A stretch of DNA of 63,103 bases, from positions 1-63,103 of IMG/VR virus record IMGVR_UViG_3300048833_000065. One strand, given 5' to 3'. How positions within the stretch are numbered: position 1 is the first letter of the stretch; each line of letters opens with the position of its first letter. Shown piece after piece: positions 8,163 to 24,249 of this stretch. The DNA comes from a virus. Its lineage: Duplodnaviria > Caudoviricetes. A model generated the notes under the pieces. It made no database searches. It was not told the origin of the DNA and was given only the letters and a program-made list of their open reading frames with translations. Both the position numbers and the translations under genes were made by a program.

Positions 8163-9286
8163 TTCCGGTTCCTTGCCTTCGGCTGCTCACTTGCCTCGAC
8201 ATGAAGCGGCGTGAACCCCTTGCGCGGCTCTCCCCTTGCAAACGCCTCACCAAACGGTGCGACGGATGCGCGACGGACAATCTCATAGAAGGCGTCGGGC
8301 TTCGCGCTATGCTCTCCGACTGCGGCCTCGAAATGAGACGGGATGGAGCGGTCGGTGATCGCAAGGTCGCCCTTGACCGCAAGGATGCAATGCTCCGTCG
8401 TATTGCGGAGCCACGCCCCGGCACCGAGAGAAGGCTTCACCCATGTCAGGATGCCCTTGTGCTTGAAGCCCCAATGAGCGACAAGCTCGCAAGCGAGCGG
8501 CATGTGCCAGTTCGTCGTCCAGAGCCACAGGTGACAATTCTCGTCGGCCCAATCCGGAACCGTGATCGCGCGAAGTTCCGGCGCGCGCATGGTCGCATAC
8601 TTTGGCGATCCATGATGCGCCGTTCCGCCTTCGTAGTGCCACGGCGGATCAACGATCAGCGCACGGAACTTCCCCTTCACGACGCGGACGCTCTCGACGC
8701 GCTTGCGGTCCTTCCGCTTCACAAGCTCGCCATAGGCTCCATCGACGGAGCGCGAGCGGTCCATCCGCTCGACCAGATCGCCGTAGACCTCCGGTTCCTC
8801 GCGCGCGGCCTCGACCACCTTGCGCGCCTTGTCATAGGTCATCTTCGACATGCCGACGCGAGCGGCGAGAACATCGCGGGTCTTGCCCGTAGAACCCTGT
8901 GCTAAATTGGCACCGGGTTCCTCGACCTTGACGCCCGCCTTCATCCGCTTCTTCGCCTCGGCCTCGACCTTCTCGCGGATCGCCTCGGCAATGGCGACCG
9001 CCTCGCTCGGCGTGAACTGCTTGCGGACCATGTTCTCGTCATGCTCCGCAGAGAGCATGTGATCGACGTCGATCAGGCGCGCAGGGATCGCCTTACGATC
9101 CATCAGCTTGAACGCTTCAAGGCGGCGCTGGCCGTAGACGAGGCGATATCCTCCCTTCACCTGAGAGACGCCGATGGGCTGCAAGAGGCCCACCGACTTG
9201 ATGCTCTCGACCAACGCGTCTAGGTCGCCAAGGTCTTTCCGGAACCGCTTGCCGACCGTGATGTCGCGGATGACGACCTCCATCAC
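8159..9286 (-). CDS. ParB N-terminal domain plus MT-A70 family adenine methyltransferase fusion
   Basis: GLLQPI...YGQRRLEA (ParB/Srx), HTH, then IVDPPW, LWLWTTN, RNTTEH, HSAKP, EAFAR. Confidence 0.88.
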   Translation of the reverse strand: MMEVVIRDITVGKRFRKDLGDLDALVESIKSVGLLQPIGVSQVKGGYRLVYGQRRLEAFKLMDRKAIPARLIDVDHMLSAEHDENMVRKQFTPSEAVAIAEAIREKVEAEAKKRMKAGVKVEEPGANLAQGSTGKTRDVLAARVGMSKMTYDKARKVVEAAREEPEVYGDLVERMDRSRSVDGAYGELVKRKDRKRVESVRVVKGKFRALIVDPPWHYEGGTAHHGSPKYATMRAPELRAITVPDWADENCHLWLWTTNWHMPLACELVAHWGFKHKGILTWVKPSLGAGAWLRNTTEHCILAVKGDLAITDRSIPSHFEAAVGEHSAKPDAFYEIVRRASVAPFGEAFARGEPRKGFTPLHVEASEQPKARNRK

Positions 9287-11124
9287 GCGACCTCCACGCT
9301 TCCGATCATCGCCGCACGGAATGACTTACGCGCTTCCGCGACCTCACTTTCGAAGTGACGCGAGAGGCGCGCAGTCGCAAGAACCGCCGTCAAGACAATC
9401 GCGCCAAAGCCCATCTTGATCGTCAGTTCATCGCTGACGCCAAGGCTCCGCATCGACAGCGCCGCCGCAATGTGGGTTCCGACCGTCGCATAGACGACGT
9501 TCTTTGCGTGGCGCTTCGCGATATCGTGAGCGACCGAGACAGGGACATTCGGCGGTGCCTTCTCAGCAATCGCGTCAACCACACTCAGGAAAAGCGTGTG
9601 TTCCTCGTTGAAGAAGGCGACGTTGTTGTGCTGCTCGAAATAAGCCGCCATGCCGCCGACACCCAAGTCTTCGAAGACGCTCGCGCTCACCCACTCATCT
9701 CGCGGAGCATCGATAGGAACGCGCCGCTTCGACGCTGGCTTATCGCCTTCATCCTGCAAGGAGCCGCGATTGCGCGTGGACGACTGGTCGTCGTTTGCAT
9801 CGGTGCGGACGTTCTGTGTATGACCGCCGTCGTCACCAAGATCAGAGCCGCTGCGGTCGCGAGCCAGCCCTTCAATCTCGTTCCGGAACTCACGCATGAG
9901 CTTGCGGAGATAGTCCCGAATGCTGGCGCTGTACTTATCATGCTGCGGCTCAAGGGCCTTTTCAATATCAGCAACCCACTGCGGTATATTGGTCCGGACA
10001 ACATCGCAGAAATCCTCCACATCAATCAGCGTGCCGTCGCGATAGTGCAGCGCGATCCGATTGATGTCGTTGAAGGCGACGTTGTCATCAAGCTCGACCA
10101 CAATCGAAACCTGAGTGAAGGAACGAACAAGGCCCCACTTCACGGCAAGGGGCGGCCACGCTTTCGAACCAAGCGTGACCCGTCCGACGTTCCTCGAAAG
10201 ACCCGCGTGGAGGCTGTGGATTTCATTGCGCCAGACGATGCCGCCAAAGGGCGTCTGACCGCCAGTCTGGCAGGGATCAAAGCGGCGGCTATAGCCGCCC
10301 GCGTCATACTTCGTTTTGATGAAGTGGATCGTGCCGTGTTCGAAGTCGATTGCGGAATAGTTGTCGGCGTGCTGCAAAAGGCTCCGCATACCAACGAGAG
10401 ACGTCCAGCTTCCCCATCCCTTGCTGCCCTTCGAACGCGTGATGCTGTGAGCAATCTTAAGGTCGACACCGTCATCAAGATCAAAAAAGCGAAACCCGAT
10501 GGCCTGCACAAGCCAGAGAGACGAAGGAAGGGCTGCGTCGAGGAATGGCCTTTGCGTCGTGTCCTGACCGACCTCATTTCCAAGCAGCGTGACTTCGGTC
10601 CAATCTGTTTCGAGATTGATGAAATCATAAAGACCGCCAGACGCATATTCACTCGTCACGTCGCGCACGAAGCTCGTTCCAGGCACCGGATTATCAACCA
10701 AGATACGACCGACCGTCTCCGCGTCGAGATCGGCGGCGAGCGTGACCTCAAGGACACGCCCTTCGACGCAAGAGCGATAGCGCATCCCTATTGCGTTGGA
10801 GAGGATCGAAGCAATCTTTGCGCCGCGCCCGAAGTTACTGTCGACCGCGTTCCGCTTGTCGATTGCCGCGTTGATATCCGAGAATTGCAAGAGCGAGCGT
10901 AGCGTCATGCCGCCACGGTTCCAGATCGACAGTTTCTGAACGCCGCCGATGGTCGTGCCATAAATGCGAATGAGGCGCTGGCCCTTCTGCTTGTCGCGGC
11001 AACCTTCGATGCCGTTCCGGACAAGCTCGCGGATCATCATTTCGCGCGCGCCCATCTTGCACTGACGCCACGCTTCTCCGGTGGGGTTATTGATCGTGAT
11101 CGGATCAAGGTAAATGCTGGTCAA
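9283..11124 (-). CDS. GHKL (MORC/Hsp90/MutL-fold) ATPase domain protein
   Basis: IRELVRNGIEG (N box), WNRGGMT (G1-like), SNFGRGAKIAS (G2), WTEVTL; TTG start with RBS. Confidence 0.7.
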   Translation of the reverse strand: MTSIYLDPITINNPTGEAWRQCKMGAREMMIRELVRNGIEGCRDKQKGQRLIRIYGTTIGGVQKLSIWNRGGMTLRSLLQFSDINAAIDKRNAVDSNFGRGAKIASILSNAIGMRYRSCVEGRVLEVTLAADLDAETVGRILVDNPVPGTSFVRDVTSEYASGGLYDFINLETDWTEVTLLGNEVGQDTTQRPFLDAALPSSLWLVQAIGFRFFDLDDGVDLKIAHSITRSKGSKGWGSWTSLVGMRSLLQHADNYSAIDFEHGTIHFIKTKYDAGGYSRRFDPCQTGGQTPFGGIVWRNEIHSLHAGLSRNVGRVTLGSKAWPPLAVKWGLVRSFTQVSIVVELDDNVAFNDINRIALHYRDGTLIDVEDFCDVVRTNIPQWVADIEKALEPQHDKYSASIRDYLRKLMREFRNEIEGLARDRSGSDLGDDGGHTQNVRTDANDDQSSTRNRGSLQDEGDKPASKRRVPIDAPRDEWVSASVFEDLGVGGMAAYFEQHNNVAFFNEEHTLFLSVVDAIAEKAPPNVPVSVAHDIAKRHAKNVVYATVGTHIAAALSMRSLGVSDELTIKMGFGAIVLTAVLATARLSRHFESEVAEARKSFRAAMIGSVEVA

Positions 11125-11167
11125 CCTACTGCTCCGTGGTAAAGCGCGGAACCGCCGCGCGCGGTCT

Positions 11168-11818: not shown

Positions 11819-12118
11819 TTAGCTCCAGGCTGTTGAACGAGAGTTGAGGGTCTGCTCGCGAGCCTTCGCGATCTGGCGCGTGTTCGGGCGCGGGACGCTT
11901 TCCGGCCACGGAAGATCATCGGGCCAGTTCTCGGCAAAGCGGCTGACGCTCCGGTCGTAGAAGCGGACGGAGAAGGTTCCGCCGTCGTGGATGCGGGCGA
12001 AGAGCTTGCTGTCACCGAGAAAGCGGCGGGCGACCGTGGAGACGCCCAAGCCCGCGTGGCGGGCGAAGAGCGTGGTCACCTTGATGAGGTTGTCGCGGAG
12101 GAGAGGCTCGTAAAGCAT
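11819..12118 (-). CDS. Cro-like HTH protein
   Basis: Small HTH (STVARRFLGDSKLF) divergent from the repressor. Confidence 0.7.
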   Translation of the reverse strand: MLYEPLLRDNLIKVTTLFARHAGLGVSTVARRFLGDSKLFARIHDGGTFSVRFYDRSVSRFAENWPDDLPWPESVPRPNTRQIAKAREQTLNSRSTAWS

Positions 12119-12272
12119 GGGCCGAGATATAATCGGATGCTTCCGATTTTGGCAAGGCCACTTCCGACCGATCTTAAACCACTAAAGGTCTTGGAACCTT
12201 CCGACGCCGTCGCCACTTGTCGGATCGTCCCGACAAGAATTGTGCTAACAGTCGGTTGGGAACCGACAGCTA
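12119..12272. promoter_or_regulatory. Lysis-lysogeny switch with several operators
   Basis: TCGGA-N4-TCCGA-type sites at 12133-12146, 12191-12204 and 12220-12233, variant at 12251-12267; - strand TTGCCA...TATATC promoter just before the cro ATG. Confidence 0.75.
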
Positions 12273-12911
12273 ATGGGAAACATCAATATGGCTCTGTCCG
12301 TAGGAGAGCGCGTACAGGCGCGCATGAGCGATCTACACACGAACTCGACAGAGGTGGCCCGCAGGGCTGGCCTCGAAAGGACTTTCGTCCATGACCTCAT
12401 TTCTGGACGCAAGAAGACCGTCACCGCCGAAGCCCTGATCGCGCTCGCCAAGGCGCTCCAGTGCCTGCCGGAAGAACTCGTCGGAAAGATGGGCGAAATC
12501 CAGCGCAACGCGGTGGAAGGGATAGAGATCGTCGGGATCATCGAACCGGAGGTCTGGCGCGGATCAGCGCCGCGCAATCTCGGAACGATCACGACTTCTA
12601 ACGACGGAAACCCACACGTAAAGGCGTTCGTGGTGCGCGGCGATGAGGCCGCGCCCATAGGGATCAGGGACGGAAGCGCTCTCGTCGTAGACATGTCCGG
12701 TGCGGTTCGCCCAGGAGACATCGCAGTTGTCGAAAGGACGAGAGACAATCTCAGGGAGCTATCACTGTGGCGGGTCGCGAACGGTGATGGGCCGACGATC
12801 CTGTCGTCACTCGACGGCAACCCTGAGAAGATCATCGAAGCGGGCGACGCGGTAAAGGTGATCGGGCGCGTGCAGAGGGCGGTCCTGACGTTCATGTCCT
12901 CGCTGCTCTAG
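12273..12911 (+). CDS. CI-like XRE repressor with S24-like C-terminal domain
   Basis: HTH STEVARRAGLERTFVHDLISGRK; C-terminal VVRGD...IRDG...GDIAVV...VIGRV. Confidence 0.8.
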   Translation: MGNINMALSVGERVQARMSDLHTNSTEVARRAGLERTFVHDLISGRKKTVTAEALIALAKALQCLPEELVGKMGEIQRNAVEGIEIVGIIEPEVWRGSAPRNLGTITTSNDGNPHVKAFVVRGDEAAPIGIRDGSALVVDMSGAVRPGDIAVVERTRDNLRELSLWRVANGDGPTILSSLDGNPEKIIEAGDAVKVIGRVQRAVLTFMSSLL

Positions 12912-12948
12912 TCTGGGGAAAACCACCCCAATCTTAAACCACTAGCTA

Positions 12949-12979
12949 TTGACAGCCGCTCGCGACGCACCCGTATAAT
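12949..12979 (+). promoter_or_regulatory. Sigma70-type promoter
   Basis: TTGACA (12949-12954), 19-bp spacer, TATAAT (12974-12979). Confidence 0.6.
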
Positions 12980-12985
12980 CGCGCG

Positions 12986-13150
12986 ATAGCGCGCGCGCGG
13001 CGACAACCTCTGAAGGTTACAACACACCACAAGCCGCAGCGGTGCAGGCGCGGCCTACAGGCCCGCGCCCTGACGAGACAACAACCTATCCCCGAGTTGA
13101 GATGCTTATAGATTGAGGAATACACGCGCGCGCGCGAGAACGCGCGCTTT
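12986..13150 (+). ncRNA. Candidate small RNA
   Basis: Follows the consensus promoter; no ORF; internal hairpins; ends in GCGCGCG-AGAA-CGCGCGC-TTT. Confidence 0.4.
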
Positions 13151-13235
13151 CCGTCTCACGGTCGGATGATGGCTCATATCTGATCCTGCGTCTTTCCGGC
13201 GCACTGTTTCCCGCGTCTCCTTCCAACTAAAAATC

Positions 13236-13287
13236 TCGGTCTTATCCGATCAAGGCTCTTGCGGAACCGGAAATATCCGATTACCTT
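13236..13287 (+). promoter_or_regulatory. Promoter with two operator-like sites
   Basis: TTGCGG-N17-TACCTT with CCGGA-AATA-TCCGA in the spacer (13267-13280) and TCGGT-CTTA-TCCGA (13236-13249). Confidence 0.6.
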
Positions 13288-13342
13288 CCGCGCATCGCCC
13301 AGGCATGAGCCAGGCGGGAAAACCAGCCACGGAGACTACCGA

Positions 13343-14554
13343 ATGATGAACATCGTTTCCCCCATCGCCACGGAGGCCAGCGCGCCTGTCGGGGCGCGCG
13401 CCGTCGATACAGGACGCGGCCAAGCCAACATGATCGCGTCGCGGCAGTGGATCAGCCGCCCTGCCGATCAGAAGTTCCTCTCCCTCACCGCCCTGCGTGA
13501 CAGCGTCCTCGCCCGCCGCGAGAAGAGCCGCGAGCAGCGCGTCAACAACAAGGGTATCGAATTTTTCTCCAATCCCGAGCCGAAGAGCATGGCCGATACC
13601 CATGACCTCTGGATCGGCCTCAACGACGGCAGCGAGATCACGCCGTCCCATTGGTCCTTCGGCCAGCTTTGCTCGCTCGCCAAGGCCCCGGCCTCATACC
13701 TCCGCACGCTCCCGGCGCAGATCGGAAGCGACGCGCTGACCTTCGGCCTTCGGCAGGCGCGGGACGTCGAAGAGGTCAAGCTCTACCATGACAACGAGAC
13801 GCTCTTCGCCGCCACAGGCCCCGACTACGGGCGCATCTTCGATCAGGAGGTGGTCGAGGCGGTCATGCAGATCGCGGGCGACGGGACGGGCGACACGCGC
13901 TGGAAGGTTCCCGGTCGCCTCGATTGGCGCACGATGCAGTATGACCCCGAACACCCGATCACCATCGACACCACGACGCTGTACGCGAGCGACCGCGATG
14001 TCTGGATCATGCTCACCGACGACCGGAACCCGATTGAGATCGGCAAGCTCCGCAACGGCGAACCCGATTACCTCAATCGCGGTTTCATCATCACGAACAG
14101 CGAGGTCGGCAAGAGCGCGCTCAAGATCTTCGCCTTCTACTTCCGCGCCATCTGCTGCAACCACATCCTTTGGGGGGTCGAGAACTTCCAAGAGATCAGC
14201 CTTCGCCACAGCAAGGCGGCACCCTCGCGCTTCATCGAAGAGGCCCGCCCCGCGCTGGCCTCCTTCGCAGAGGGATCGGTGACGCGGCTGGTCGAGGGCG
14301 TCGAGCGCGCCAAGGCGATCAAGCTCGCCAGCGATCAGGACGAGGCGCTGACCTTCCTCACCGAGCGCAAGTTCAGCCGCGCGAAGGCGCTGGCGATCCT
14401 TGAGACGGGCGAGAAGGAAGAAGGCGAGCCACCGCGCACGGTCTGGCAGATGGCTCAAGCCATCACCGCAGACGCGCGGGCGATCCAGAACACCGATGAG
14501 CGGGTGGAACAGGAACTGGTCGCCAAGACCATCCTCGACAAGGCAGCGGCGTGA
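13343..14554 (+). CDS. DUF932 domain protein
   Basis: QWISRPADQKFLSL, WSFGQLC, SDRDVW, RGFIITNSEVG, ICCNHILWG; RBS GGAG. Confidence 0.75.
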   Translation: MMNIVSPIATEASAPVGARAVDTGRGQANMIASRQWISRPADQKFLSLTALRDSVLARREKSREQRVNNKGIEFFSNPEPKSMADTHDLWIGLNDGSEITPSHWSFGQLCSLAKAPASYLRTLPAQIGSDALTFGLRQARDVEEVKLYHDNETLFAATGPDYGRIFDQEVVEAVMQIAGDGTGDTRWKVPGRLDWRTMQYDPEHPITIDTTTLYASDRDVWIMLTDDRNPIEIGKLRNGEPDYLNRGFIITNSEVGKSALKIFAFYFRAICCNHILWGVENFQEISLRHSKAAPSRFIEEARPALASFAEGSVTRLVEGVERAKAIKLASDQDEALTFLTERKFSRAKALAILETGEKEEGEPPRTVWQMAQAITADARAIQNTDERVEQELVAKTILDKAAA

Positions 14555-14560
14555 AGGGGG

Positions 14561-14587
14561 CGGGGCGGGCCTAACAAGCCCGCCCCG
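14561..14587 (+). terminator. GC-rich stem-loop after DUF932
   Basis: CGGGGCGGGC-N7-GCCCGCCCCG; no U-tract. Confidence 0.4.
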
Positions 14588-14597
14588 TAGATCGCCA

Positions 14598-14906
14598 ATG
14601 AGCAGGGCATTGATCTTGAAAATCGAACGCGCAACGAAAACGCAATGCGACGAGGTTCGCCCCGTCATCGTCGCCCTTATGGCGCAAGACCTTCTCGACC
14701 ACGGCGTCGATCTGACGAACGACGACGCGGTGATTTTGAATTTGCTTTCCAACCGCCATTCCTCGCGCTGCATCGCGGCGTGCATGGATGAGGCGGTCAA
14801 GGTCGCAACAATCCTTCAAGGGTTCATCCATGAGCAAGATCACGGCGGAAAGTCTCGGCATCAAGAAGACGCTGCAAGTGCGGTCGATCACTGTCGCCTG
14901 TCCTAA
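14598..14906 (+). CDS. Hypothetical protein
   Basis: ORF starting MSRALILK in the + operon. Confidence 0.5.
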   Translation: MSRALILKIERATKTQCDEVRPVIVALMAQDLLDHGVDLTNDDAVILNLLSNRHSSRCIAACMDEAVKVATILQGFIHEQDHGGKSRHQEDAASAVDHCRLS

Positions 14907-15012
14907 AGGCGGCTACAAGAACACGCGGATCGTGAAGCGCAAGGTCAGCCTTGCGAGCGTTCCCGGCGTTGACGATCCCGAGCCGTCGCCGCGCGACTTG
15001 CGGCGGAAGTAA
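14830..15012 (+). CDS. Hypothetical basic protein
   Basis: ORF starting MSKITAESLG. Confidence 0.45.
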   Translation: MSKITAESLGIKKTLQVRSITVACPKGGYKNTRIVKRKVSLASVPGVDDPEPSPRDLRRK

Positions 15013-15150
15013 CGACGAACGCGCGCGCCGCTTCTCCGTGGGGCGCGCAAAGCGGCGGCGAGGGTGGTTCCTTGTCGTCCAACGGGCCGCGCGGAAGTGG
15101 ACACCGCGCGGCCCACCCATCAACTTGGCGCTTCTTTGAGAGGGTCGGCA

Positions 15151-16005
15151 ATGACTTCACTGGATGAAAGCAAGATCAGGGCGCGCGTGTTCGATGTTGT
15201 CAGGCGCATCATCGATATTCCACCCGCATCCGGGAGCAATCTCAAAAATCTCCGCAAGGACTTTCTTCGACCGCCTCCGATGAAGGAGTTCCAAGGAATT
15301 GATCCAGTTCTTCTGTACAAGGATCAACGCCAGTGGTTTTTTCATCCAAGGGAATGCACCCCGAAAATCCTGTGGCCTGTTGATGTTTGCGTAATTCAGC
15401 CGAGCGGTGGAGACGATATTGGGCTTCTTGTTCAAAGGTGGCGCAGCATCCAGCCTAGGGAGGTCAGGGGATACGCGAAGCTAGTAAGCCCCTATATGAT
15501 GCGTCGAGATGTTGGCGCGGAGAGCGCGGGGCAGTTCGTCACAGTGTCAAGTCTTCATTCCTACATCGGTGGAAGATGGCCCTTTGCCGATGCCCAACCG
15601 ACGAGCGACAATTTGCTTGACGCTGGCGGGCTTGCCATCGCCGTCGCCCTGCGACAGCGTTACGAGTGGGCGGTCAATATCGGCTTCGAAGATTTGCCTA
15701 GCGTGCGTATCGCGACCGATCCAACAGGAATGAAGGAGCTATTTCGCCTTCGCGATGTTGCTGACGGGCGCGACAGGCGCGACGCACTGATGACTTGGGT
15801 ATCCGATCATTGGCGCAAGGATCGCGTTGACCCGGACGTCGAAAGGTATGTTCGCAAGCACATGAGGGGAGCAGCTAAATTCGATTGGCGCGGTATGGTT
15901 TGTGAAATCAAGCCTTCTCAATTTGATCTAGAGCAGAGGGACGCTTTCCTGCAAGAGCGCGAAGCGATGCGAAAAGCAGGATCGGACAAGAGGGTCTCCG
16001 CGTGA
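15151..16005 (+). CDS. Hypothetical protein
   Basis: 284-aa ORF with C-terminal HWRK...VRKHMRG motif. Confidence 0.65.
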   Translation: MTSLDESKIRARVFDVVRRIIDIPPASGSNLKNLRKDFLRPPPMKEFQGIDPVLLYKDQRQWFFHPRECTPKILWPVDVCVIQPSGGDDIGLLVQRWRSIQPREVRGYAKLVSPYMMRRDVGAESAGQFVTVSSLHSYIGGRWPFADAQPTSDNLLDAGGLAIAVALRQRYEWAVNIGFEDLPSVRIATDPTGMKELFRLRDVADGRDRRDALMTWVSDHWRKDRVDPDVERYVRKHMRGAAKFDWRGMVCEIKPSQFDLEQRDAFLQEREAMRKAGSDKRVSA

Positions 16006-16400
16006 TCCGCGCGCCAACATCGAAGGATGAAGCCTTTGCATGGTGGAGCCTCGCGCTTCGCGGCAAGGCGGTCATCGTCAGCGACGAGCCTCAGTGCGGG
16101 TTCTTCAAGCGGAAGCTCGTCAAGGACGGCCCTTTCGTTCCGGCGCGCATCTGGCTGGATCAGGACGTCGATCCCGAGACGGGCGAGCTTTGCGACGACG
16201 AGCGGCTGCAATGCGAGGTCAACGGCAGCTATGCCGATCCGTTCGACGCGTGGGGCTGGCTCTGCGGCAATCCCATCACCGAGCAGGAGTTCAGATACAT
16301 GGAAGCGATGCGCGAACACGCGCTGCGCCATGAGCCGGATCACCCGATGAGCGATCCGCGCAAGCCGATCAACAATCTTCAAACGCCGATTTTATTCTAG
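16002..16400 (+). CDS. Conserved phage hypothetical protein
   Basis: PQCGFFKRKLVKDGPFVPARIW motif; GTGA coupling. Confidence 0.7.
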   Translation: MIRAPTSKDEAFAWWSLALRGKAVIVSDEPQCGFFKRKLVKDGPFVPARIWLDQDVDPETGELCDDERLQCEVNGSYADPFDAWGWLCGNPITEQEFRYMEAMREHALRHEPDHPMSDPRKPINNLQTPILF

Positions 16401-16412
16401 GAGGACCAGCCA

Positions 16413-17198
16413 ATGGATGACGTGCTTTCAATGCAGGGCCACAACAGGCCACCGCCCGATCTTCTGACGGGCGAGGAGCTTCGCGCGAAGCTGGTCGAGG
16501 AGCATGCCGCCCTCGCCGCTCGCCGCGATGAACTGCTCGCCGCAGGCAACCGCGTCCCGGAGATCGACAGCGAGGACGTGGCCCGCAAGGTTTCGGACTT
16601 CATCGGGCAGATCGCAGCGGCTGCGAAGGCCGCTGACGGCGCGCGCGTCGCGGAGAAGGAGCCATATCTCAGCGGCGGGCGGGTCGTGGACGGGTTCTTC
16701 AAAGGGCTTACCGATCCCCTCGAAACGCTGAAGAAGAACGTCGAGAGGAAGCTGCGCGATTATCTCCGCGAGAAGGAAGCGGCAGAGCGAGCGCAGCGCG
16801 AGAAGGAAGCGCGCGAGGCTCGCGAGCGCGAACTGGAGGCCCGCCGCAAGGCAGAGGAAGCCGCCCAGGCTGCGCGAGATCAGGCGTCGCTCGATGCCGC
16901 CATTGCACAGGAGAAGGCGGCAGAGGTTGCCGCCGCCGACGCGGAAAAAGCGCAGCAGGCGGCAGAAGTGAAGCCCGCAGAGTTGAGCCGCACGCGCGGC
17001 GAGTTCGGCGCGGTGGCGAGCCTCCGCACTTACTGGACCTTCAAAGACCTCGACCGCAACGCCCTCGACCTTGAGGCGCTGCGCCATCACCTCCCGACCG
17101 AAGGTCTGGCGCAGGCCGTCCGGTCCTTCATCAAGGCGGGCGGGCGTGAGTTGAGGGGCGTTGAAATTTACGAAGATAGCCAAGCAGTCGTTCGATAG
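16413..17198 (+). CDS. Coiled-coil protein of the recombination module
   Basis: GHNRPP N-terminus, long E/A/R coiled coil, RELRGVEIYE C-terminus; strong AGGAGG RBS. Confidence 0.7.
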   Translation: MDDVLSMQGHNRPPPDLLTGEELRAKLVEEHAALAARRDELLAAGNRVPEIDSEDVARKVSDFIGQIAAAAKAADGARVAEKEPYLSGGRVVDGFFKGLTDPLETLKKNVERKLRDYLREKEAAERAQREKEAREARERELEARRKAEEAAQAARDQASLDAAIAQEKAAEVAAADAEKAQQAAEVKPAELSRTRGEFGAVASLRTYWTFKDLDRNALDLEALRHHLPTEGLAQAVRSFIKAGGRELRGVEIYEDSQAVVR

Positions 17199-17210
17199 GA
17201 GAAAACGAAC

Positions 17211-18263
17211 ATGAACCAGCCAGCAGATACGAAGACGCCGACGCTCTACGAGCAGCTTGAGGAAAGGACGGCGCAGTTCCAAGCGGCGCTTCCCGCTCAC
17301 ATTCCGGTGGAGCGCTTCTCGCGCATCCTTTTGACGGCGGTGCAGAACAGCCCTGCGCTCGCCTTCGCGGATCGCCGCTCGTTCTTCAACAGCGCCATGA
17401 AGTGCGCGCAGGATGGCCTGCTGCCCGATGGGCGCGAGGCCGCGCTCGTCATCTACAAGACGAAGAAGAAGGAAGGGAACCGCGAGTTCTGGATCGACGC
17501 GGTCCAGTACATGCCGATGGTCGGCGGACTTCGGAAGAAGGTCCGCAACAGCGGCGAGATCGCAACGTGGGACGTCAAGGCGGTCTATGAGAAGGACGAG
17601 TTCCTTTACGAGGAAGGCATCGATATCGTTCTGAAGCATAAGCCGTTCATCGACGGGCCTGCTGGCAAGTTGAAGGCAGTCTATTCCGTCGCGAAGCTGA
17701 AGAGCGGCGAGGTCAGCATCGACGTGATGCCGCTCTGGCAGGTCGAGCGCATCCGCAACCTGTCGAAGGCGAAGGACAGCGGCCCTTGGAAGGACCACTA
17801 CGACGAGATGGCGAAGAAGACCGTCGCGCGCCGTCACAGCAAGACGCTGCCCATGTCCACGGACCTCGATGACCTGATCAGGCGCGACGACGACCTCTAT
17901 GACATGAAGGGCGCGAGCGATGCGGAGAAGCTTCCGCAGGCGCGCCGCCCGCAGCTTTCCGATTTCTCGGAACTGCCGTCGAGCGGGATCACCGAGAAGC
18001 CCGCAGAGGAAGCGAGCGAGAACGTCGATCCGGAAAGCGGCGAGATCACGGAGGCCGACACCGCCCAGGCGGCGGAAGATGAGAAGCCCGCTGACGAAGG
18101 CGGTGCCGCAACGCTCGCCTATGGGCGCGGGCGCGTGTCTCGCCAGAAAGGCGCGAGCTTCCGCGCGGTGCCGGGAGAGTATCGCGACCAGCCGCAGGCG
18201 ACCGAAGATTGGCGCAAGGGCTGGCAGGACGAGGACCGCGCCATCCACGAAGGCAACGCTTAA
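17211..18263 (+). CDS. recT: RecT family single-strand annealing protein
   Basis: ALPAHIPVERFSR, CAQDGLLPDGREA, PWKDHYDEMAKKTVARR. Confidence 0.9.
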   Translation: MNQPADTKTPTLYEQLEERTAQFQAALPAHIPVERFSRILLTAVQNSPALAFADRRSFFNSAMKCAQDGLLPDGREAALVIYKTKKKEGNREFWIDAVQYMPMVGGLRKKVRNSGEIATWDVKAVYEKDEFLYEEGIDIVLKHKPFIDGPAGKLKAVYSVAKLKSGEVSIDVMPLWQVERIRNLSKAKDSGPWKDHYDEMAKKTVARRHSKTLPMSTDLDDLIRRDDDLYDMKGASDAEKLPQARRPQLSDFSELPSSGITEKPAEEASENVDPESGEITEADTAQAAEDEKPADEGGAATLAYGRGRVSRQKGASFRAVPGEYRDQPQATEDWRKGWQDEDRAIHEGNA

Positions 18264-18290
18264 ACACCACCAGCAACGAAGGAGAAAGAC

Positions 18291-18497
18291 ATGACGACCA
18301 TTGCAGAAGCCGCAGCCGCCTATGAGAGCGCGAAGCTCGCCCTCGCGGATGCGAAGGAGCAGCTTGCCGCTGCCGAAGCGCATGAGAAGTCGTGCGCCAT
18401 GAAGGAGCGCGAGGCTTACAGGGCATTCAACGAAGCCGTTGATGCGATGAAGCCGAAGCGCGGGTCGCGTCCGAAGAAGGGCGAGGGCAATGGCTGA
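18291..18497 (+). CDS. Hypothetical protein
   Basis: AAGGAG RBS; coiled-coil ORF. Confidence 0.6.
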   Translation: MTTIAEAAAAYESAKLALADAKEQLAAAEAHEKSCAMKEREAYRAFNEAVDAMKPKRGSRPKKGEGNG

Positions 18498-18672
18498 CGG
18501 CGGATACGCCGTCGCCCTTGTGGCTCTGATCGTGGGCGTCGCTCTGGCGACGCTCGCAATCGCCCGCCTGATCTACGAGCTTCGCACGCAAGGCGAGGAC
18601 CACGACGAGACGCTCTTTGGCGATCTGCCGAAGGTTCCGGAATTCATGCACAGAAGGAGAGACGACGAATGA
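18490..18672 (+). CDS. Small membrane protein
   Basis: N-terminal hydrophobic helix. Confidence 0.55.
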   Translation: MADGGYAVALVALIVGVALATLAIARLIYELRTQGEDHDETLFGDLPKVPEFMHRRRDDE

Positions 18673-19055
18673 CCATCAAGGCAAGGAAGGCGGCAGCGGT
18701 CATGCTGTCCGAGTTGGAAGCGGAGAGCGACGCGATCCGTGAAAGCATCAGCGACGAGCTTCAATTCAGCACGTCGATGATCCTCACACTCACGGAGAGC
18801 CGCGAGGAAGAGCTTCGCGCACTGGACGCGGAGATTGATAAGCGGAAGGCGCGGGTCCGGAAGACCTATGCCGAGTTGATCCGCAACGAGGAGCGCCGGA
18901 TCGCGCTCTACAAGGCGCAGCTTAAGAAGCTGGACGGTCCCGACGCTGTCGATCCGGACTTTGCGGAAGTCGAAGGCGCGGACATTCCTGTCACCAAGAC
19001 CGAGCCGTCTCTGATCGGTCACAACTCCAACGGGGCGGAAGACAAGGCTGCTTGA
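18669..19055 (+). CDS. Hypothetical coiled-coil protein
   Basis: ATGA-coupled ORF. Confidence 0.6.
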   Translation: MTIKARKAAAVMLSELEAESDAIRESISDELQFSTSMILTLTESREEELRALDAEIDKRKARVRKTYAELIRNEERRIALYKAQLKKLDGPDAVDPDFAEVEGADIPVTKTEPSLIGHNSNGAEDKAA

Positions 19056-19140
19056 AAAGCAAAGGGCCGCGATCCCGAAGGACGCGGCCCGACCCCACCC
19101 GACAAGTTTCTTACCACGGAGACTTTCTAGCGAGGATGCG

Positions 19141-19470
19141 ATGCAGGATATGGCACGAACAATATCGGAAAACAAGACCGCCAGGATCAAGAGGCTCTCA
19201 GACGAGGGACTTTCCAACAGGGAAATTGCCGAAATCGTCGGGTCCACTCTCAACTCGGTTTCAGTGACCCTCAACTATGTGCGGAACGGATACGGACGGA
19301 AGAACCGGAAGGCGATGATGGTTCGGATGGACCCGATTATGCGTGATGCCCTGATGCTGGAGGCGAAGAGGCGCAATATGCGCGAGCAGGACTTGGCTCG
19401 TGTCGTTCTCGAAACCGTCGTTCGCGACAAGCTGTTTGGCGCGGTGTTTGACGATGGCCCTGACACCTGA
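19141..19470 (+). CDS. HTH DNA-binding protein
   Basis: GLSNREIAEIVGSTLNSVSV HTH plus ribbon-helix-helix-like tail. Confidence 0.65.
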   Translation: MQDMARTISENKTARIKRLSDEGLSNREIAEIVGSTLNSVSVTLNYVRNGYGRKNRKAMMVRMDPIMRDALMLEAKRRNMREQDLARVVLETVVRDKLFGAVFDDGPDT

Positions 19471-19582
19471 GATCAGGGAAATCCTGCGCGCCATCGCCCG
19501 CGCAGCCATCGAAGAAAAGCTCGCGTCGAAGGGCGAGGGATCGGATAGGTCCGAGTTGCCCGCCAAGGCGGCTGCGCGCTAG
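19454..19582 (+). CDS. Small protein upstream of the integrase (possible recombination directionality factor)
   Basis: MALTPEIREILRAIARAA; position only. Confidence 0.35.
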   Translation: MALTPEIREILRAIARAAIEEKLASKGEGSDRSELPAKAAAR

Positions 19583-19611
19583 TCTGCCGTCACCACGGAG
19601 GACCAGCCACA

Positions 19612-21297
19612 ATGACCAGAGCCGCCATCTACGGTCGCTTTTCCACAGACTTGCAGCGGGATCGATCCGTCGAGGACCAGTTCGCGCTCTGCGATGGCTT
19701 CGCGAAGCGCGAAGGGCTTTCCATCGTTCGGTCCTATAGCGACAAGGCGAAGTCCGGAGCGTCCATCTTCGGGCGCGACGGGCTTCTCAATCTCATGGAA
19801 GACGCGCGGGCCGGATTGTTCGACGCGGTGGTGGTCGAGGCGCTCGACCGCATCTCACGCGATCAGGAAGACCTCGCCGGGATATACAAGCGGCTCTCCT
19901 TCGCGGGCGTGAAGCTGATCGCCGTCCACGATGGGCAGGCCGACGCGGTTCAGATCGGCGTGCGCGGCCTTCTCGGCTCGCTCTTCCTTGCCGACCTCGC
20001 CCACAAGGTCAGGCGCGGCCTGCAAGGCGTCATTCGCGACGGGCGGCACGCTGGCGGCAAGGCATACGGCTATCACCCGGTGCCGGGGAAGCCGGGAGAG
20101 CTTTCCATCGATCAAGCGGAGGCCGCTGTCGTGCGCCGCATCTTCACCGAGTATGTCGAAGGAGCGTCGCCCAGGGCCATCGCCAGAAAGCTGAACGACG
20201 AGGGAATACTCCCGCCGCGAGGCACGGTCTGGAACGCCAGCACGATCAACGGCAACGGCAAGCGCGGGACAGGCATCCTCCAGAACCCGCTCTACGCGGG
20301 CGAGATCATCTGGAACCGCGTCCGCATGGTGCGCGACCCGGCGAGCGGCAAGCGGCTCAGTCGCGTGAACCCGGAGAGCGAGTGGCACCGGGCGAAGGCT
20401 CCGCATCTTCGCATCATTGATGACGCGCTTTTCCACGCCGCTCGAGAGCGAAAGATCGACAACTCCCACGACCGCGATCCGTCGAAGCCGATGGTCAAGA
20501 AGCCTCACCTCCTGTCGGGCCTTCTCCGCTGCGGCGTCTGCGGCTCCGGGATGAGCCTGAGTGGAACGGACGACGGTCGCCGCCGCGTGCGATGCAGCCG
20601 CTCAAAGGAGAGCGGATCGTGCAGCAACCGGACGCGGTTCTATCTCGACGTCGTGGAGCAGACGGTGATCGATAACCTCGCGAGCATCTTTCGCGAGCCG
20701 GAAGTGCTGGATGAGTATCTCCGCATCTATCGTGAGGAATGGCGCGCGCGGACGCAGGCGGCGGTCAGGAACCGCGACGCGATCTCTCGCGGGCTTGCGG
20801 ACGTCAAGGGACAGATCGACAGGATGGTGAAGCTCTACGCGAAAGGCGTCATCGATGAGGCAAGGGCCGAGCGCGAGCTTCTGGAACTGCGCGGGCGCGA
20901 GATCGATTTGTCCACGGAGCTTTCGAGAGCCTCAAGCGATGTTCCGGTCATCGAATTGCACGCCGATGCGGTGGCCGAGTTTCGCGCGACCGTCGATAGC
21001 CTCGCGCTGCGCCTGCCGCAGATCGCGAAGAGCGAGGCCGCTCTCGCAGCCAACTTCCGGAAGCTGATCGACGCCGTCGTCGTCCATCCGGGTCGCCCCG
21101 CTCAGATCGAAGTCGTGGGCAAGCTCGCGGCCCTGATCGGGAAGGCGAGCCGGGGCGGTGAGGCCCCGGCTCTATCGATGGTAGCGGGAGACCGTTCTAG
21201 CCGGAAGAGCCGGGAAGTGCGCGGATTGCTCATATTTGGGCCGTGGGAGGCTATCCAGGCGGCGGGTGTTCCCCGAAAACTGGCCGCAAGCCTTTGA
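19612..21297 (+). CDS. Large serine recombinase (integrase)
   Basis: AAIYGRFSTDLQ catalytic Ser, LDRISR, recombinase domain, LLSGLLRCGVCG Zn ribbon. Confidence 0.93.
   Translation: MTRAAIYGRFSTDLQRDRSVEDQFALCDGFAKREGLSIVRSYSDKAKSGASIFGRDGLLNLMEDARAGLFDAVVVEALDRISRDQEDLAGIYKRLSFAGVKLIAVHDGQADAVQIGVRGLLGSLFLADLAHKVRRGLQGVIRDGRHAGGKAYGYHPVPGKPGELSIDQAEAAVVRRIFTEYVEGASPRAIARKLNDEGILPPRGTVWNASTINGNGKRGTGILQNPLYAGEIIWNRVRMVRDPASGKRLSRVNPESEWHRAKAPHLRIIDDALFHAARERKIDNSHDRDPSKPMVKKPHLLSGLLRCGVCGSGMSLSGTDDGRRRVRCSRSKESGSCSNRTRFYLDVVEQTVIDNLASIFREPEVLDEYLRIYREEWRARTQAAVRNRDAISRGLADVKGQIDRMVKLYAKGVIDEARAERELLELRGREIDLSTELSRASSDVPVIELHADAVAEFRATVDSLALRLPQIAKSEAALAANFRKLIDAVVVHPGRPAQIEVVGKLAALIGKASRGGEAPALSMVAGDRSSRKSREVRGLLIFGPWEAIQAAGVPRKLAASL
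21147..21189 (-). other. Putative attP core (tRNA 3'-end-like) followed by a hairpin
   Basis: - strand TCCCGCTACCA then GAGCCGGGGC-N6-GCCCCGGCTC. Confidence 0.55.
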
Positions 21298-21317
21298 AAT
21301 GTGGGCAGGATAAATAG

Positions 21318-21331
21318 TCGGAAACTTCCGA
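21318..21331. promoter_or_regulatory. Operator TCGGA-AACT-TCCGA upstream of the amidoligase operon
   Basis: Matches the cI/cro region palindrome; lies just upstream of TTGATC...TATGTG. Confidence 0.65.
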
Positions 21332-21415
21332 TCTTTTCCGTTGATCGTTCTGAACGACGAGCTATGTGTGCTTTACCGCCTCGACCGGGCGGCAACGCAA
21401 ACCACGGAGACTTAG

Positions 21416-22408
21416 ATGACCAGCCTTCCCCTCACCTTCGGCGCAGAGCTTGAATGCTTCCTCCCGATTGGCATGACGCACCGCGCCGCTGCCGCACGGA
21501 TCGCCGCCGAGACCGGGATCGAATGCCACGCCGAAGGATATAACCACTACACTCGCCCGACTTGGAAGATCGTGACGGACGGCTCGCTGGGCAACTACCA
21601 GCGCGGCGCGGAGATCGTCAGCCCGATCCTTTCGGGCGAGGAAGGGATCGAAGCCCTCGCCAAGGTCTGCCGCGCGCTCACCGACATGGGCGCGAAGGTC
21701 AACAAGAACTGCGGCTTTCACGTCCACATCGGAATGCGCGGCGAGAGCCTCGACACTTGGAAGAACGTCATCCGCGCATACGCGGCCTTCGAAACGCAGA
21801 TCGACAACCTGATGCCGACGAGCCGCCGCGCCAATAACAACTGCTACTGCCGCAGCATCGCGCGGATCGATCACGCGGCCCTTGAGCGGGCGACTGACCT
21901 TTCCGGCGTAGACCGCGCGGTTGACCTTCGCGGCGCATACGACCGCCGCTATGCCAAGGTGAACCTCCAGAGCTACTACCGCCACGGCACCATCGAGTTC
22001 CGCCAGCACAGCGGCACGGTAGACGCCGACAAGGCGACCAACTGGGTCCGCTTCCTCCTCGCGATGGTAGAGGCCGCGCGCAAGGGCAAAAAGCCCGCAA
22101 CGACGGCGGCGGCAACCAGCGCCACGGTGACGGCGCGCCCCGGCAGCAAGACGGCTCTGGCCGGGTCGATGCTGACGAGGCCGAACGGCTGCACGCGGCA
22201 GGAGATACTCGCCGCGACAGGCTGGCCCACGGTTTCGGTCCAACAGGTCGCCCGCTCCTGCGGGCTGGCGATCAGCCAGCGCCGCGAAGGCCGGAACGTC
22301 CGCTACTTCGCGCAGGGCGACATGACCGCCTCGCTCGACGGCCTCTTCGCCCTGATCGAAGCGAACGACAACATCGCCCGCTTCTATACGGGCCACGCGC
22401 AGGGTTAA
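21416..22408 (+). CDS. Putative amidoligase (COOH-NH2 ligase) with inserted DUF3489-like HTH
   Basis: TFGAELE, WKIVTDGSL, EIVSP, CGFHVH, TIEFRQHSGT; RPGSK...TRPNGCTRQEILAATGW. Confidence 0.85.
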   Translation: MTSLPLTFGAELECFLPIGMTHRAAAARIAAETGIECHAEGYNHYTRPTWKIVTDGSLGNYQRGAEIVSPILSGEEGIEALAKVCRALTDMGAKVNKNCGFHVHIGMRGESLDTWKNVIRAYAAFETQIDNLMPTSRRANNNCYCRSIARIDHAALERATDLSGVDRAVDLRGAYDRRYAKVNLQSYYRHGTIEFRQHSGTVDADKATNWVRFLLAMVEAARKGKKPATTAAATSATVTARPGSKTALAGSMLTRPNGCTRQEILAATGWPTVSVQQVARSCGLAISQRREGRNVRYFAQGDMTASLDGLFALIEANDNIARFYTGHAQG

Positions 22409-22505
22409 CACCGCGCGCGGCGCTCGCGGCTGACCGACCCTTATCAACACGCCAGAGAGCGCCGGGGCTTGACTGCCCCGGCCTCTATCCGAGAGAAAGG
22501 ATGGA

Positions 22506-22745
22506 ATGCGAATGTTCCTGACCAACGACGGCAAGGAGTTTGTGGCGCGCGATGAGGCTCACCTCGTCGCGTTGCTGCGCGCAGACAGTTTCACTCCATC
22601 TCCCACGCTCGCCGCTTTCATGCGTGACGTTGCCGAGCGCGCTCGTCTTCAAGACAGGCGCATCACGCTCCGCACCGATACGACGGAACACTTCGTCTCC
22701 GACATGATCGCGGCTGGTCTTCTCTCGGAGCGGCCCGTCAACTGA
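22506..22745 (+). CDS. Hypothetical protein in the amidoligase cassette
   Basis: AAGGA RBS; FMRDVAER...FVSDMIAAGLL. Confidence 0.65.
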   Translation: MRMFLTNDGKEFVARDEAHLVALLRADSFTPSPTLAAFMRDVAERARLQDRRITLRTDTTEHFVSDMIAAGLLSERPVN

Positions 22746-22819
22746 ACGGGCCAAATTCGACTTGCAGACGAGAAGATGCTGGCCCATGTCAGCGCCACCA
22801 CGGAGAAAGGAAACTTGCC

Positions 22820-23056
22820 ATGAACACAGAACAGACCCTAGAGGCCAACGCCTCAAGCCTCACCGCTTGGCGGGAGGCGATGGGCTTCTCGCAGCGCGAA
22901 GCCGCAGTGGCCCTTGGCTGCTCACGCAACGCGCTCGCGGGATGGGAGAGCGGCGAAGCCCGCACGCCGAAATACATCGCGCTGGCCTGCGCTGCGCTCG
23001 CCTTGAACATCAAGGTAGAGGGCGGCGCTGACGCCGACGAAGACGAAGACCTCTGA
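22820..23056 (+). CDS. XRE HTH protein
   Basis: WREAMGFSQREAAVALGCSRNALAGWESG...PKYIALACAAL. Confidence 0.85.
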   Translation: MNTEQTLEANASSLTAWREAMGFSQREAAVALGCSRNALAGWESGEARTPKYIALACAALALNIKVEGGADADEDEDL

Positions 23057-23079
23057 CCACCGACCACGGAGACCCGCAC

Positions 23080-23634
23080 ATGACCGACAAGCTCTATCTC
23101 GCATATGGTTCTAACCTCTGCATCGAGCAGATGAAAATCCGCTGCCCTGCCGCCGAGCCGCTTGGCACGACCACGATCTTCAACAACCGCCTCGTCTTCC
23201 GGGGCGTCGCTGACATTGAGAAGGCCGATGGCTTCAAGGTTCCGGTCGGCGTCTGGCGCATCACCAAGGAGTGCGAGCGCGCCCTCGACGTCTATGAGGG
23301 CATCAAGAGCGGCCTCTATGTGAAGCGGAACTGCCGCCTGCGCGACGGCGCGGTCGCGATGTTCTACAAGATGAAGTCGACCGATATCCTGCCGCCGAGC
23401 GATTACTACCTCGACGTGATCAGGGAGGGATATGGCGACTTCGGCCTCGACCTCGCGGCCCTCAAGGAGGCGGTAAAGCATTCGAAGCAGCACCGCCGCG
23501 CCTCACGCGGCCTTCTGGAGCGGCAGGAGCGCCGCGACAGACGATGGCGCGAGCGGAAGCGCCGGGAGGAAGAGGAAGCCTTTCTCGCCGCCAACGACCT
23601 CCCCTATTGGACCGACCCCGCGCTCTACGCTTGA
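23080..23634 (+). CDS. Gamma-glutamylcyclotransferase (GGCT/AIG2-like)
   Basis: YLAYGSNL, RCPAA, LDVYEG, PPSDYY. Confidence 0.88.
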   Translation: MTDKLYLAYGSNLCIEQMKIRCPAAEPLGTTTIFNNRLVFRGVADIEKADGFKVPVGVWRITKECERALDVYEGIKSGLYVKRNCRLRDGAVAMFYKMKSTDILPPSDYYLDVIREGYGDFGLDLAALKEAVKHSKQHRRASRGLLERQERRDRRWRERKRREEEEAFLAANDLPYWTDPALYA

Positions 23635-23692
23635 CCGCAGAAGCTTGGCTCTGTATCGATCAGGGCCTCTAGGGATTAGACGTCAAACGACA

Positions 23693-23733
23693 AAGAGGCC
23701 CGCCACCGATGCTACTCGGTGCGCGGGCCTCTT
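23693..23733. terminator. Long hairpin between convergent genes
   Basis: AAGAGGCCCGC-CACCGA-N6-TCGGTG-C-GCGGGCCTCTT. Confidence 0.6.
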
Positions 23734-23772
23734 GCGCTCGACCTGCGGTTCCAGCCGCTGCCGCAGGGAGGT

Positions 23773-24249
23773 CTATGGCACTTCCAAACGAAACACAGCG
23801 TCAGGAATTGCGAAATCCTCATGAACGTAATCATGGCAATAGCGCGTCACATGAGAACGGTATTTATGCGGCCCGCTTGTGAGTGGCGGACGCCCCGGAT
23901 CAGATTGCTTTGGTATGGCCACTGAAATGGGTATTTCAACAATCTCCTCACTCGGCTTGGTGTACCCACCCGCAACGGTCGGCATTCTGATAGGCACTGT
24001 TCCGTCCGGCGCAACGATGAAACTGCGAACATCAGAAGGGCATTGCCTGTTGACGCGCGCCTTGTACACCATCTTGAGTGTTCCACCCGGATGAACAGTT
24101 GGCGTCGTCACGCCAACGCCATACCATTCAATCGGGTTGACAGTCCTTCCCCAAAACCGCTGACCACTCTCAATCGCTGGAAGGATCGTGGTCACAAAAA
24201 TCAGGGCGAGCATTGCCGGGATCAAGTGCTTGATAAGGAACTCTTTCAT
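23773..24249 (-). CDS. Membrane-anchored or exported protein
   Basis: N-terminal TM followed by a beta-rich domain with two Cys. Confidence 0.65.
   Translation of the reverse strand: MKEFLIKHLIPAMLALIFVTTILPAIESGQRFWGRTVNPIEWYGVGVTTPTVHPGGTLKMVYKARVNRQCPSDVRSFIVAPDGTVPIRMPTVAGGYTKPSEEIVEIPISVAIPKQSDPGRPPLTSGPHKYRSHVTRYCHDYVHEDFAIPDAVFRLEVP

Follow-up and report, generated by a model that had tools for sequence, protein, structure and literature searches.

What is the role of a hairpin that lies within a block of early or accessory phage genes and carries, in reverse orientation, the motif preceding about a dozen start sites of the same genome? We addressed this question in IMGVR_UViG_3300048833_000065, a complete Caudoviricetes virus record with terminal repeats (63,103 bp, 59-65% G+C), the whole of which is called the window below. 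The hairpin, H1, occupies 15021-15048 on the + strand, and the start motif of the window reads (A)CCACGGAG(A). An original prediction from the sequence had proposed that H1 displays the antisense of the motif in its loop and pairs with the corresponding ribosome-binding sites (RBS). The complementarity, the fold, the position and the recurrence in other phages are observed. Judged from sequence, the reading of H1 as an antisense RNA element which pairs with the motif RBS seems to us evenly balanced between right and wrong.

Hairpin H1 and the start motif of the window

The 9-mer TCTCCGTGG at 15033-15041 (+ strand) is the exact reverse complement of the motif form CCACGGAGA and is its sole antisense copy in the genome. 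The form CCACGGAGA occurs eight times on the + strand and once on the - strand, the latter being the site at 15033-15041, where a start codon does not follow the motif copy. The expectation was 0.80 copies for both strands, and none of 100 shuffled sequences reached nine copies. With about 0.4 copies expected per strand and a non-coding share of 5.8% in the window (crude mask), about 0.02 antisense copies are expected by chance in non-coding DNA. The location of the antisense copy in a non-coding gap of the transcribed + strand, as predicted originally, was verified by the limits of the neighbouring open reading frames (ORFs) at 15012 and 15151.

The predicted stem GCGCGCC (15023-15029)/GGCGCGC (15042-15048) is indeed a perfect 7-bp inverted repeat with a 12-nt spacer, and the predicted alternative stem, CGCCGCTT (15026-15033)/AAGCGGCG (15050-15057), is also perfect. 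The latter 8-bp stem (15026-15057, + strand) competes with H1 and the next hairpin, H2, and would place CTCCGTGG in a 16-nt loop. However, the proposed 12-nt open loop was not recovered, and only 6 nt are open in both the minimum-energy fold and the ensemble. In this fold, H1 has an outer stem GCGCGC/GCGCGC, a 1x1 internal loop, an inner stem CCGC/GUGG and a 6-nt loop (-22.1 kcal/mol when folded alone). Since CCGC (15028-15031) pairs with GUGG (15038-15041; unpaired probability 0.00-0.02), only the Shine-Dalgarno-complementary UUCUCC (15032-15037, + strand; unpaired probability about 1.0) is exposed. This hexamer, which resembles the anti-Shine-Dalgarno core of 16S rRNA, is the likely seed of pairing. 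The predicted 9-bp duplex with the motif has an energy of -16.6 kcal/mol against a cost of 5.8 kcal/mol to open the hairpin at all nine bases, that is, a net value of about -10.8 kcal/mol. Simple duplex energies of H1 with the complete set of start regions were uninformative, as the G+C stems outweighed everything else.

The gap folds into three hairpins, H1, H2 and H3, with a fold z-score of -3.28. H2 (15054-15079, + strand) has 11 bp including four G-U pairs and therefore forms solely in the + strand RNA. H3 (15084-15114, + strand) has a perfect 11-bp G+C stem and a 9-nt loop and is followed by ACCCAUCAAC; it is a possible 3' end or processing hairpin. A U tract is absent from all three hairpins. 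An Rfam search of L001 (covering 13450-16700) gave no match at E values up to 5, and a 17-nt piece of H1 had no exact match among viral contigs.

The heptamer CACGGAG is found 24 times in the window (17 copies on the + strand and seven on the - strand). Ten of these copies lie 6-11 nt before the start of an ORF of at least 87 codons, and two more lie at 14-19 nt, in agreement with the predicted set of about a dozen targets, integrase included. On the + strand, the copy at 13327-13335 precedes the DUF932 gene (13343-14554), which belongs to the same operon as the hairpin and whose motif is 1.7 kb 5' of it. The copies at 19592-19600, 21401-21410 and 23063-23072 precede the genes of a serine integrase (19612-21297), an amidoligase (21416-22408) and a gamma-glutamyl cyclotransferase-like protein (23080-23634), respectively. 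Between the latter two genes, the copy at 22797-22806 stands before the gene of a 78-aa helix-turn-helix (HTH) regulator (22820-23056) with a spacing of 14 nt and has a 10-nt complement to the hairpin. Further downstream, copies are found before the DUF6011 gene (58750-58759; gene 58767-59396) and before ORFs of 96 aa (59455-59464; ORF 59470-59760), 87 aa (59843-59852; ORF 59859-60122) and 157 aa (61520-61528; ORF 61536-62009). On the - strand, the copies at 11132-11140 and 3003-3011 precede ORFs of 613 aa (9283-11124) and 144 aa (2560-2994). A looser + strand copy at 19113-19122 has its next start codons 14-19 nt downstream. Family matches among the motif genes were limited to DUF932, the serine integrase, the amidoligase, the gamma-glutamyl cyclotransferase-like protein, DUF6011 and the HTH regulator, and the others have no assignment.

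The amidoligase and gamma-glutamyl cyclotransferase-like pair (21416-23634) shows 32-48% identity to pairs in three AT-rich motif phages (G012:16208, G018:8213 and G019:28985). The amidoligase gene is preceded by the motif in all four cases, the window included; judging from these sequences, the motif seems to travel with the amidoligase cassette or to be re-created on it.

Recurrence in unrelated phages

The motif is a real start-associated signal which is common in unrelated phages. A search of IMG/VR with the motif followed by ATGA gave at least 118 stretches, many with several start-associated copies. The motif-bearing phages span 39-68% G+C and have almost no proteins in common with the window; motif-rich examples are L181, L179, L228, L243, L203, L177, L171, L256, L220 and L237, together with the whole records G006-G030. 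Up to 33 copies were found in G016, a 149-kb record. Counts by orientation in whole records were strongly one-sided (1/9, 0/7, 1/6, 6/0, 0/11 and 7/26), and a reversed control pattern gave 0-3. Of the 141 CCACGGAG copies in a set of 26 motif-bearing contigs (823 kb with the window), 101 were start-associated, with a motif-to-ATG spacing of 6-7 nt in 71 of 104. The consensus across these contigs is aACCACGGAGAc with G-poor flanks, its positions being partly biased by the scan pattern. In the unrelated phages the motif has the form (A/C)CCACGGAG(A), 6-7 nt 5' of ATG, nearly always in one orientation. In the literature, the 8-mer was found in primers only. Some AT-rich motif phages (L179, L181, L238, L239 and L247) carry repeated promoter-like cassettes, GTGTTGACA..TATAAT, before the motif start sites, and the corresponding cassette in the G016 pieces L545-L549 is TGATAGTTTCAnAATAACGAAACA.

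Antisense copies recur in phages which are unrelated to the window at the protein level (G006, G008, G010, G013, L334, L385, L490 and L457). Copies in the odd orientation were read on the strand of the motif genes. In G006, the stem CCUCGGCC, the loop UUUUCUCCGUGG and the stem GGCCGAGG lie 20 nt 3' of the stop codon of a ParB gene and are directly followed by an 11-bp hairpin and GUUUUC. A perfect stem of 8-9 bp, whose sequence is unlike that of the window, closes the same 12-nt loop position (TTTTCTCCGTGG vs GCTTCTCCGTGG); the closing stem at that position has 7 bp in the window and 9 bp in G006, with unrelated sequences. The 12-mer TTCTCCGTGGGG is common to the window, G006 and G013.

Several of the other copies stand at gene ends or beside terminator-like hairpins. 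The antisense copies of G010 and L334 lie at the ends of ORFs of 152 and 293 codons, in loops of 18 and 7 nt, respectively; next comes a 14-bp hairpin with a U-rich tail in G010 and a hairpin with a U run in L334. The non-coding copy in L385 is directly 5' of a U-tailed hairpin. In L490, three small genes, each with a CACGGAG start site, precede the copy, which occupies a loop in a branched structure. L334, L385 and L490 each have two or three motif-type start sites on the same strand, and the start sites of L334 and L490 read ACACGGAGAA, the exact complement of UUCUCCGUG. G008 has CUCC in a small loop within a 278-nt divergent intergenic region; a U-tailed hairpin follows after about 25 nt, and the region precedes a gene whose start site is CACGGAGAA. 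In G013 (L266 1510-1600), a stop codon is followed after 11 nt by the antisense copy and then closely by a TTGACA/TATATT promoter, and the copy is predicted to pair in cis with a motif start site 57 nt downstream; such an element could silence the translation of read-through transcripts while promoter-started transcripts stay open. L457 (6770-6890) has a promoter-like site (TTGACG-17-TAGACT), a first hairpin and then a long U-tailed hairpin, with the 6-nt loop UUCUCC and flanks in the second hairpin (16 nt in common with H1) and a CACGGAGAA start site elsewhere in the locus. From its sequence, this arrangement looks like a free-standing small-RNA gene. In L358, L369/L384 and L461, the antisense copy is just 5' of a hairpin, and motif genes were not seen in the stretches examined.

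The copy in G007, which is inside a 642-codon ORF, was taken as a chance occurrence, and the seven odd-orientation copies of G016 together with those of G022-G024 were start sites or coding. A loose Rfam search returned RybB on the G008 element at chance level (E=2.3). It also returned the Bradyrhizobiaceae small RNA BjrC68 at L385 2067-2134 (- strand; 27.1 bits, E 0.0057), a match below the gathering score and at chance level which is separated from the antisense element by about 870 nt.

The frequency of these copies was compared with permuted 8-mers, for which about 1.0 non-coding copy is expected per orientation over the 26 contigs. The observed number of non-coding antisense copies was three with the automatic mask and five when sites were judged by eye; among 400 permuted 8-mers, 4.25% reach three and 0.5% reach five. 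Reciprocal scans of IMG/VR with the 14-mers TTTCTCCGTGGGGC and CTTCTCCGTGGGGC gave at least 227 loci and at least 182 distinct sites; among the matches listed, 22 are start sites on the other strand and 160 remain. Among these matches, L334, L360 (= G006), L419, L490 and L385/L351 share their strand with two or more motif-type start sites, and such sites lie on the opposite strand at L470 only. A closing stem of at least 5 bp at the exact position of the window was found in three of the 227, namely G006 and two identical copies of another sequence, again among the matches listed. A crude Fisher test on the reciprocal scan gave p = 0.035 (153 of the listed sites, those less than 150 nt from a locus end being dropped), with G006 and L334 misclassified as coding due to shadow ORFs. 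Both the automatic coding mask and the deep-coding test misclassify sites in high-GC DNA, and the counts derived from them are rough.

A comparable arrangement is found in Cluster K mycobacteriophages. The accessible text of Pope et al. 2011 (PMC3203893) describes 13-bp start-associated sequences (SAS) before 11-19 genes of these phages. The SAS are asymmetric, contain a Shine-Dalgarno core, and lie 3-9 nt before start codons in nearly always one orientation; in K1 phages, one SAS is in the opposite orientation without a link to a gene start. The same text leaves the function of the SAS open and allows a host- or phage-encoded RNA or protein as binder. In the four K1 phages compared here, Adephagia (JF704105), Anaya, Angelica and CrimD (L541-L544), GGGATAGGAGCCC occurs 14-17 times in the forward orientation and exactly once in reverse. 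In Adephagia, genes 92 and 93 are separated by 432 nt, and within this gap the reverse copy follows a U-tailed hairpin; it is itself the 10-nt loop, CCUCCUAUCC, in a long hairpin (58,640-58,720 = L540:540-620). Its opening cost is 0.0 and its duplex energy is -14.6 kcal/mol. The reverse copy matches 12 of the 13 positions of the SAS, and the loop CCUCCUAUCC is invariant in all four phages; covariation says little here, because the four are 95% identical in this region. According to the accessible text of Freeman et al. 2024 (PMC11373665), the role of the SAS is not known, and the apparent start of late transcription is in the gap of genes 92 and 93. The accessible text of a 2025 paper on 188 Cluster K genomes (PMC12699233) still calls the function unknown and uses "antisense" 0 times and "hairpin" 0 times. 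Within the accessible text of the SAS papers, we found no statement calling the K1 reverse site an RNA. The site is noted there as unexplained, and its placement in a hairpin loop is a finding of the present analysis.

Proposed mechanism and competing explanations

In the mechanism we favour, H1 would be transcribed with the early + strand genes, directly 3' of the stop codon of a 60-aa ORF. Its loop UUCUCC would nucleate pairing with GGAGA of the motif RBS, as a likeness of the anti-Shine-Dalgarno core of the ribosome, and the pairing would then extend into GUGG:CCAC to give 9 bp. Access of the ribosome would be blocked at about a dozen genes with the motif, including DUF932, the serine integrase, the amidoligase, the cyclotransferase-like gene, DUF6011 and several unassigned genes. 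We infer that the RNA accumulates, pairs with the motif sites and represses their translation. The element might act in trans, as a small RNA which is processed or derived from a 3' untranslated region (3'-UTR), or in cis, by folding back on its own polycistronic transcript, of which the first gene, DUF932, carries the motif. An antisense copy at the 3' end of a transcription unit with motif genes upstream was found in five cases (the window, G006, G010, L334 and L490), so that either mode, in cis on its own mRNA or in trans, is conceivable. The original proposal of an antisense-loop RNA directed at a set of RBS was strengthened by the recurrence at gene ends, in hairpin loops or beside terminators in unrelated motif phages and by the Cluster K analogue, while its 12-nt open loop was lost. 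The link to a lysis-lysogeny decision in particular was not supported.

Several observations count against this reading of H1. Only 6 nt are exposed in the hairpin of the window, and the duplex ends at 9 bp because most motif copies read GGAGAC. No intrinsic terminator was found in 15013-15150 and no promoter-like site was found by the scan of 12000-24000 from which both results come; a stricter terminator scan gave none within 100 nt of the antisense copy. The protein-level relatives of the window have neither the motif nor the hairpin. Among the 12 motif-rich genomes (at least 90% completeness with at least four motif copies), a non-coding antisense copy was found in only four (the window, G006, G008 and G010), and G007, G009, G012, G014, G016, G018, G025 and G030 are without it, as are the partial records G011, G019 and G022. 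A relaxed search with 7-mers, allowing G-U pairs, found none in 10 element-less records (G016 left out) and nothing convincing in 14 motif-bearing contigs. The recurrence statistics are of moderate strength. The scans are biased samples, since their queries came from the window itself. Two of the five counted sites, G008 (masked by a 54-codon ORF) and G010 (overlapping the last codons of an ORF and automatically labelled a start site), were reclassified by hand. The four or five same-strand loci against one opposite-strand locus among the matches listed are not significant alone, and L419, one of the five, is deep in a 770-codon ORF.

Since many motif-rich genomes are without an antisense copy, the motif works without the element. 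Its main function must therefore be independent of the hairpin and presumably concerns translation initiation; the hairpin would supply a further layer of control.

The first alternative is that these are ordinary intergenic hairpins, serving at a mosaic joint as terminators or as processing or mRNA-stabilising structures, with a first-loop match by chance in the window and look-alikes collected by a search seeded with it. G+C-rich hairpins without a U tract do follow other genes of the window, and homologues of the 284-aa gene downstream of H1 are preceded by a G+C hairpin with unrelated loops. In addition, about one stray 8-mer copy per strand per genome is expected anyway (controls, 0-3), eight of the 12 near-complete motif-rich genomes have no element, and the strand bias in the reciprocal scans is weak. 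Against this stand the expectation of about 0.02 copies in the non-coding DNA of the window, the identical 12-nt loop position in G006, where the perfect closing stem differs, and the shared UUCUCC loop of L457, both from unrelated phages, and the 12-mer common to three sites. Moreover, Cluster K keeps its 12/13 reverse copy exactly in a hairpin loop, which cannot be chance. On balance we regard coincidence as the less likely reading, but as a serious rival for the window's own copy.

It is improbable, in our view, that the motif is instead the recognition site of a phage or host protein which binds RNA or DNA, the inverted copy being one more such site without RNA-RNA pairing. Another reader would be needed for ACCAC before GGAG, which cannot pair with the 16S rRNA tail, and the CACGGA core resembles the CsrA/Rsm binding core; the many motif-rich phages without an antisense copy are also in keeping with a protein. 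However, the inverted copy is a different sequence as RNA and would be invisible to an RNA-binding protein, and a CsrA homologue was sought in the phage and none was found. A DNA-binding protein should keep the flanking inverted repeats and not the spacer, whereas here the loop is kept and the arms vary. Furthermore, the neighbouring hairpins with U tails establish which strand is transcribed, namely the antisense one. The remaining alternative, in which the - strand is functional and its equally stable hairpin shows the sense motif CCACGGAGAAGC in a GGA loop as a decoy for a motif-site binder, is very improbable, because the neighbouring genes are all on the + strand, the four G-U pairs of H2 become A-C mismatches on the - strand, and U tracts follow the hairpins on the antisense-motif strand in G006, G008, G010, L334, L385 and L457.

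Returning to H1 as an antisense RNA, a broader proposal is that an extended Shine-Dalgarno motif marks a set of early or accessory genes and that one short hairpin RNA shuts the whole set off together, in trans or by fold-back, as a widespread and undescribed type of control which arose at least twice, in the CCACGGAG phages of many hosts and in Cluster K. We put this forward tentatively, and with more doubt than belief. If true, one loop RNA and a motif at a dozen start sites would constitute a compact post-transcriptional regulon switch, in which the hairpin loop is a private mimic of the ribosome's anti-Shine-Dalgarno. It would explain the SAS motifs, a question open for Cluster K since 2011, and the pair of motif and antisense could serve as a portable, orthogonal translation switch for engineering.

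The hairpin sits within a + strand block of early or accessory genes in the order DUF932, two small ORFs, the 284-aa gene, an exonuclease-like gene, RecT and the serine integrase. The gap (15013-15150, 138 nt) separates two + strand genes. Upstream is the 60-aa ORF (14830-15012), which has no family match and whose stop is 8 nt 5' of H1. Downstream is the 284-aa gene (15151-16005), whose function is not assigned and which has an ordinary GAGAGGG RBS without the motif. Since homologues of the 284-aa protein begin a few residues before DESKIRA, its true start is ATG at 15151 and not the in-frame GTG at 15064. A GC3-based gene caller (GC3, G+C at third codon positions) missed this gene in favour of low-GC3 ORFs of the other strand. 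The homologous genes in L087, L089 and L002-L004 have a single G+C hairpin upstream, with loops unrelated to that of H1. The 284-aa gene may have been acquired recently as a module, in which case the gap would be a mosaic joint. At 15131-15143, its AGAGG is predicted to pair with CUUCU just 5' of the RBS, and this local hairpin could damp its translation. Directly 3' of the DUF932 stop, a G+C-rich hairpin (14556-14587; GGGGCGGGGCGGGCC..GCCCGCCCC) without a U tract is found, and the phage seems to end or punctuate genes with hairpins of this type. No tRNA genes were found in the window, and no Rfam family matched at the gathering score anywhere in it.

Relatives of the window were sought through the 284-aa protein, DUF932 and the large terminase. 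No close relative was found in IMG/VR, metagenomes or named phages; the closest proteins there are 59-66% identical and occur in other contexts without the motif. The relatives contain 23 copies of CCACGGAG in 1.2 Mb, compared with 16 in the window, showing no enrichment of the motif, and their neighbouring genes differ. A search of genome contigs gave no match, and INPHARED phages gave distant matches only. L218 and L222 are short motif-bearing contigs which are about 57-67% identical to the window in terminase and portal and contain structural genes only.

Comparison with known systems

The hok mRNA, in which the 3' end closes the translation start region at the 5' end by pairing with it, resembles the cis variant, in which a 3'-UTR loop would close the DUF932 start site of the same transcript. 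However, hok is a toxin-antitoxin mRNA, and the likeness suggested here is one of mechanism. AbcR1/2 and similar alphaproteobacterial small RNAs (sRNAs) have C/U-rich loops which pair with the RBS of many mRNAs; they are chromosomal and Hfq-dependent, with two CUCCCA-type loops. The original prediction compared the loop with those of AbcR sRNAs; a kinship with them was not supported, and no Rfam match of any kind was obtained. The window element also differs from AbcR and alpha-r15 in having the CUCC loop in H1 only and in its phage-encoded targets with an extended motif in common.

Among phage RNAs, c4 is cut from the same transcript as its target. In the accessible text of PMC12197685, c4 of P1/P7 (immI) has complementary sequences, probably in loops, which bind around the RBS and block translation, and the accessible part of PMC8201110 describes its role in controlling ant. 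Similarly, the loop of the window is a 9-nt exact complement of motif sites which overlap the RBS, with the CUCC core unpaired. However, c4 controls one operon (icd-ant) and decides immunity, whereas the motif of the window is common to about a dozen scattered genes. The neighbours of H1 (DUF932, two small ORFs, the 284-aa gene, exonuclease and RecT) provide no icd/ant-type antirepressor context. No match to any Rfam family, the C4 antisense RNA family (RF01695) included, was found at the window element. The sar RNA of P22 has a single target, to which it is encoded antisense on the other strand, whereas the window element is encoded far from its proposed targets. In the accessible text of PMC12197685, sar is a small antisense RNA which binds the ant mRNA by pairing and hampers the initiation of its translation. 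Known phage antisense RNAs which block an RBS control one gene or operon each.

The SAS system of Cluster K is similar in several respects. Like the SAS, the motif of the window is asymmetric, contains a Shine-Dalgarno core and lies a few nucleotides before the starts of a subset of genes in one orientation, and the window likewise has a single opposite-orientation copy which is not at a gene start. In both Adephagia and the window, this copy is the loop of an intergenic hairpin. On the other hand, the motif of Cluster K is GGGATAGGAGCCC and not (A)CCACGGAG(A), the hosts of Cluster K are actinobacteria, and the Cluster K hairpin is intergenic to genes 92 and 93, at the apparent start of late transcription, whereas that of the window is inside an early operon. 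The window is therefore an analogue of the SAS system and not a member of it.

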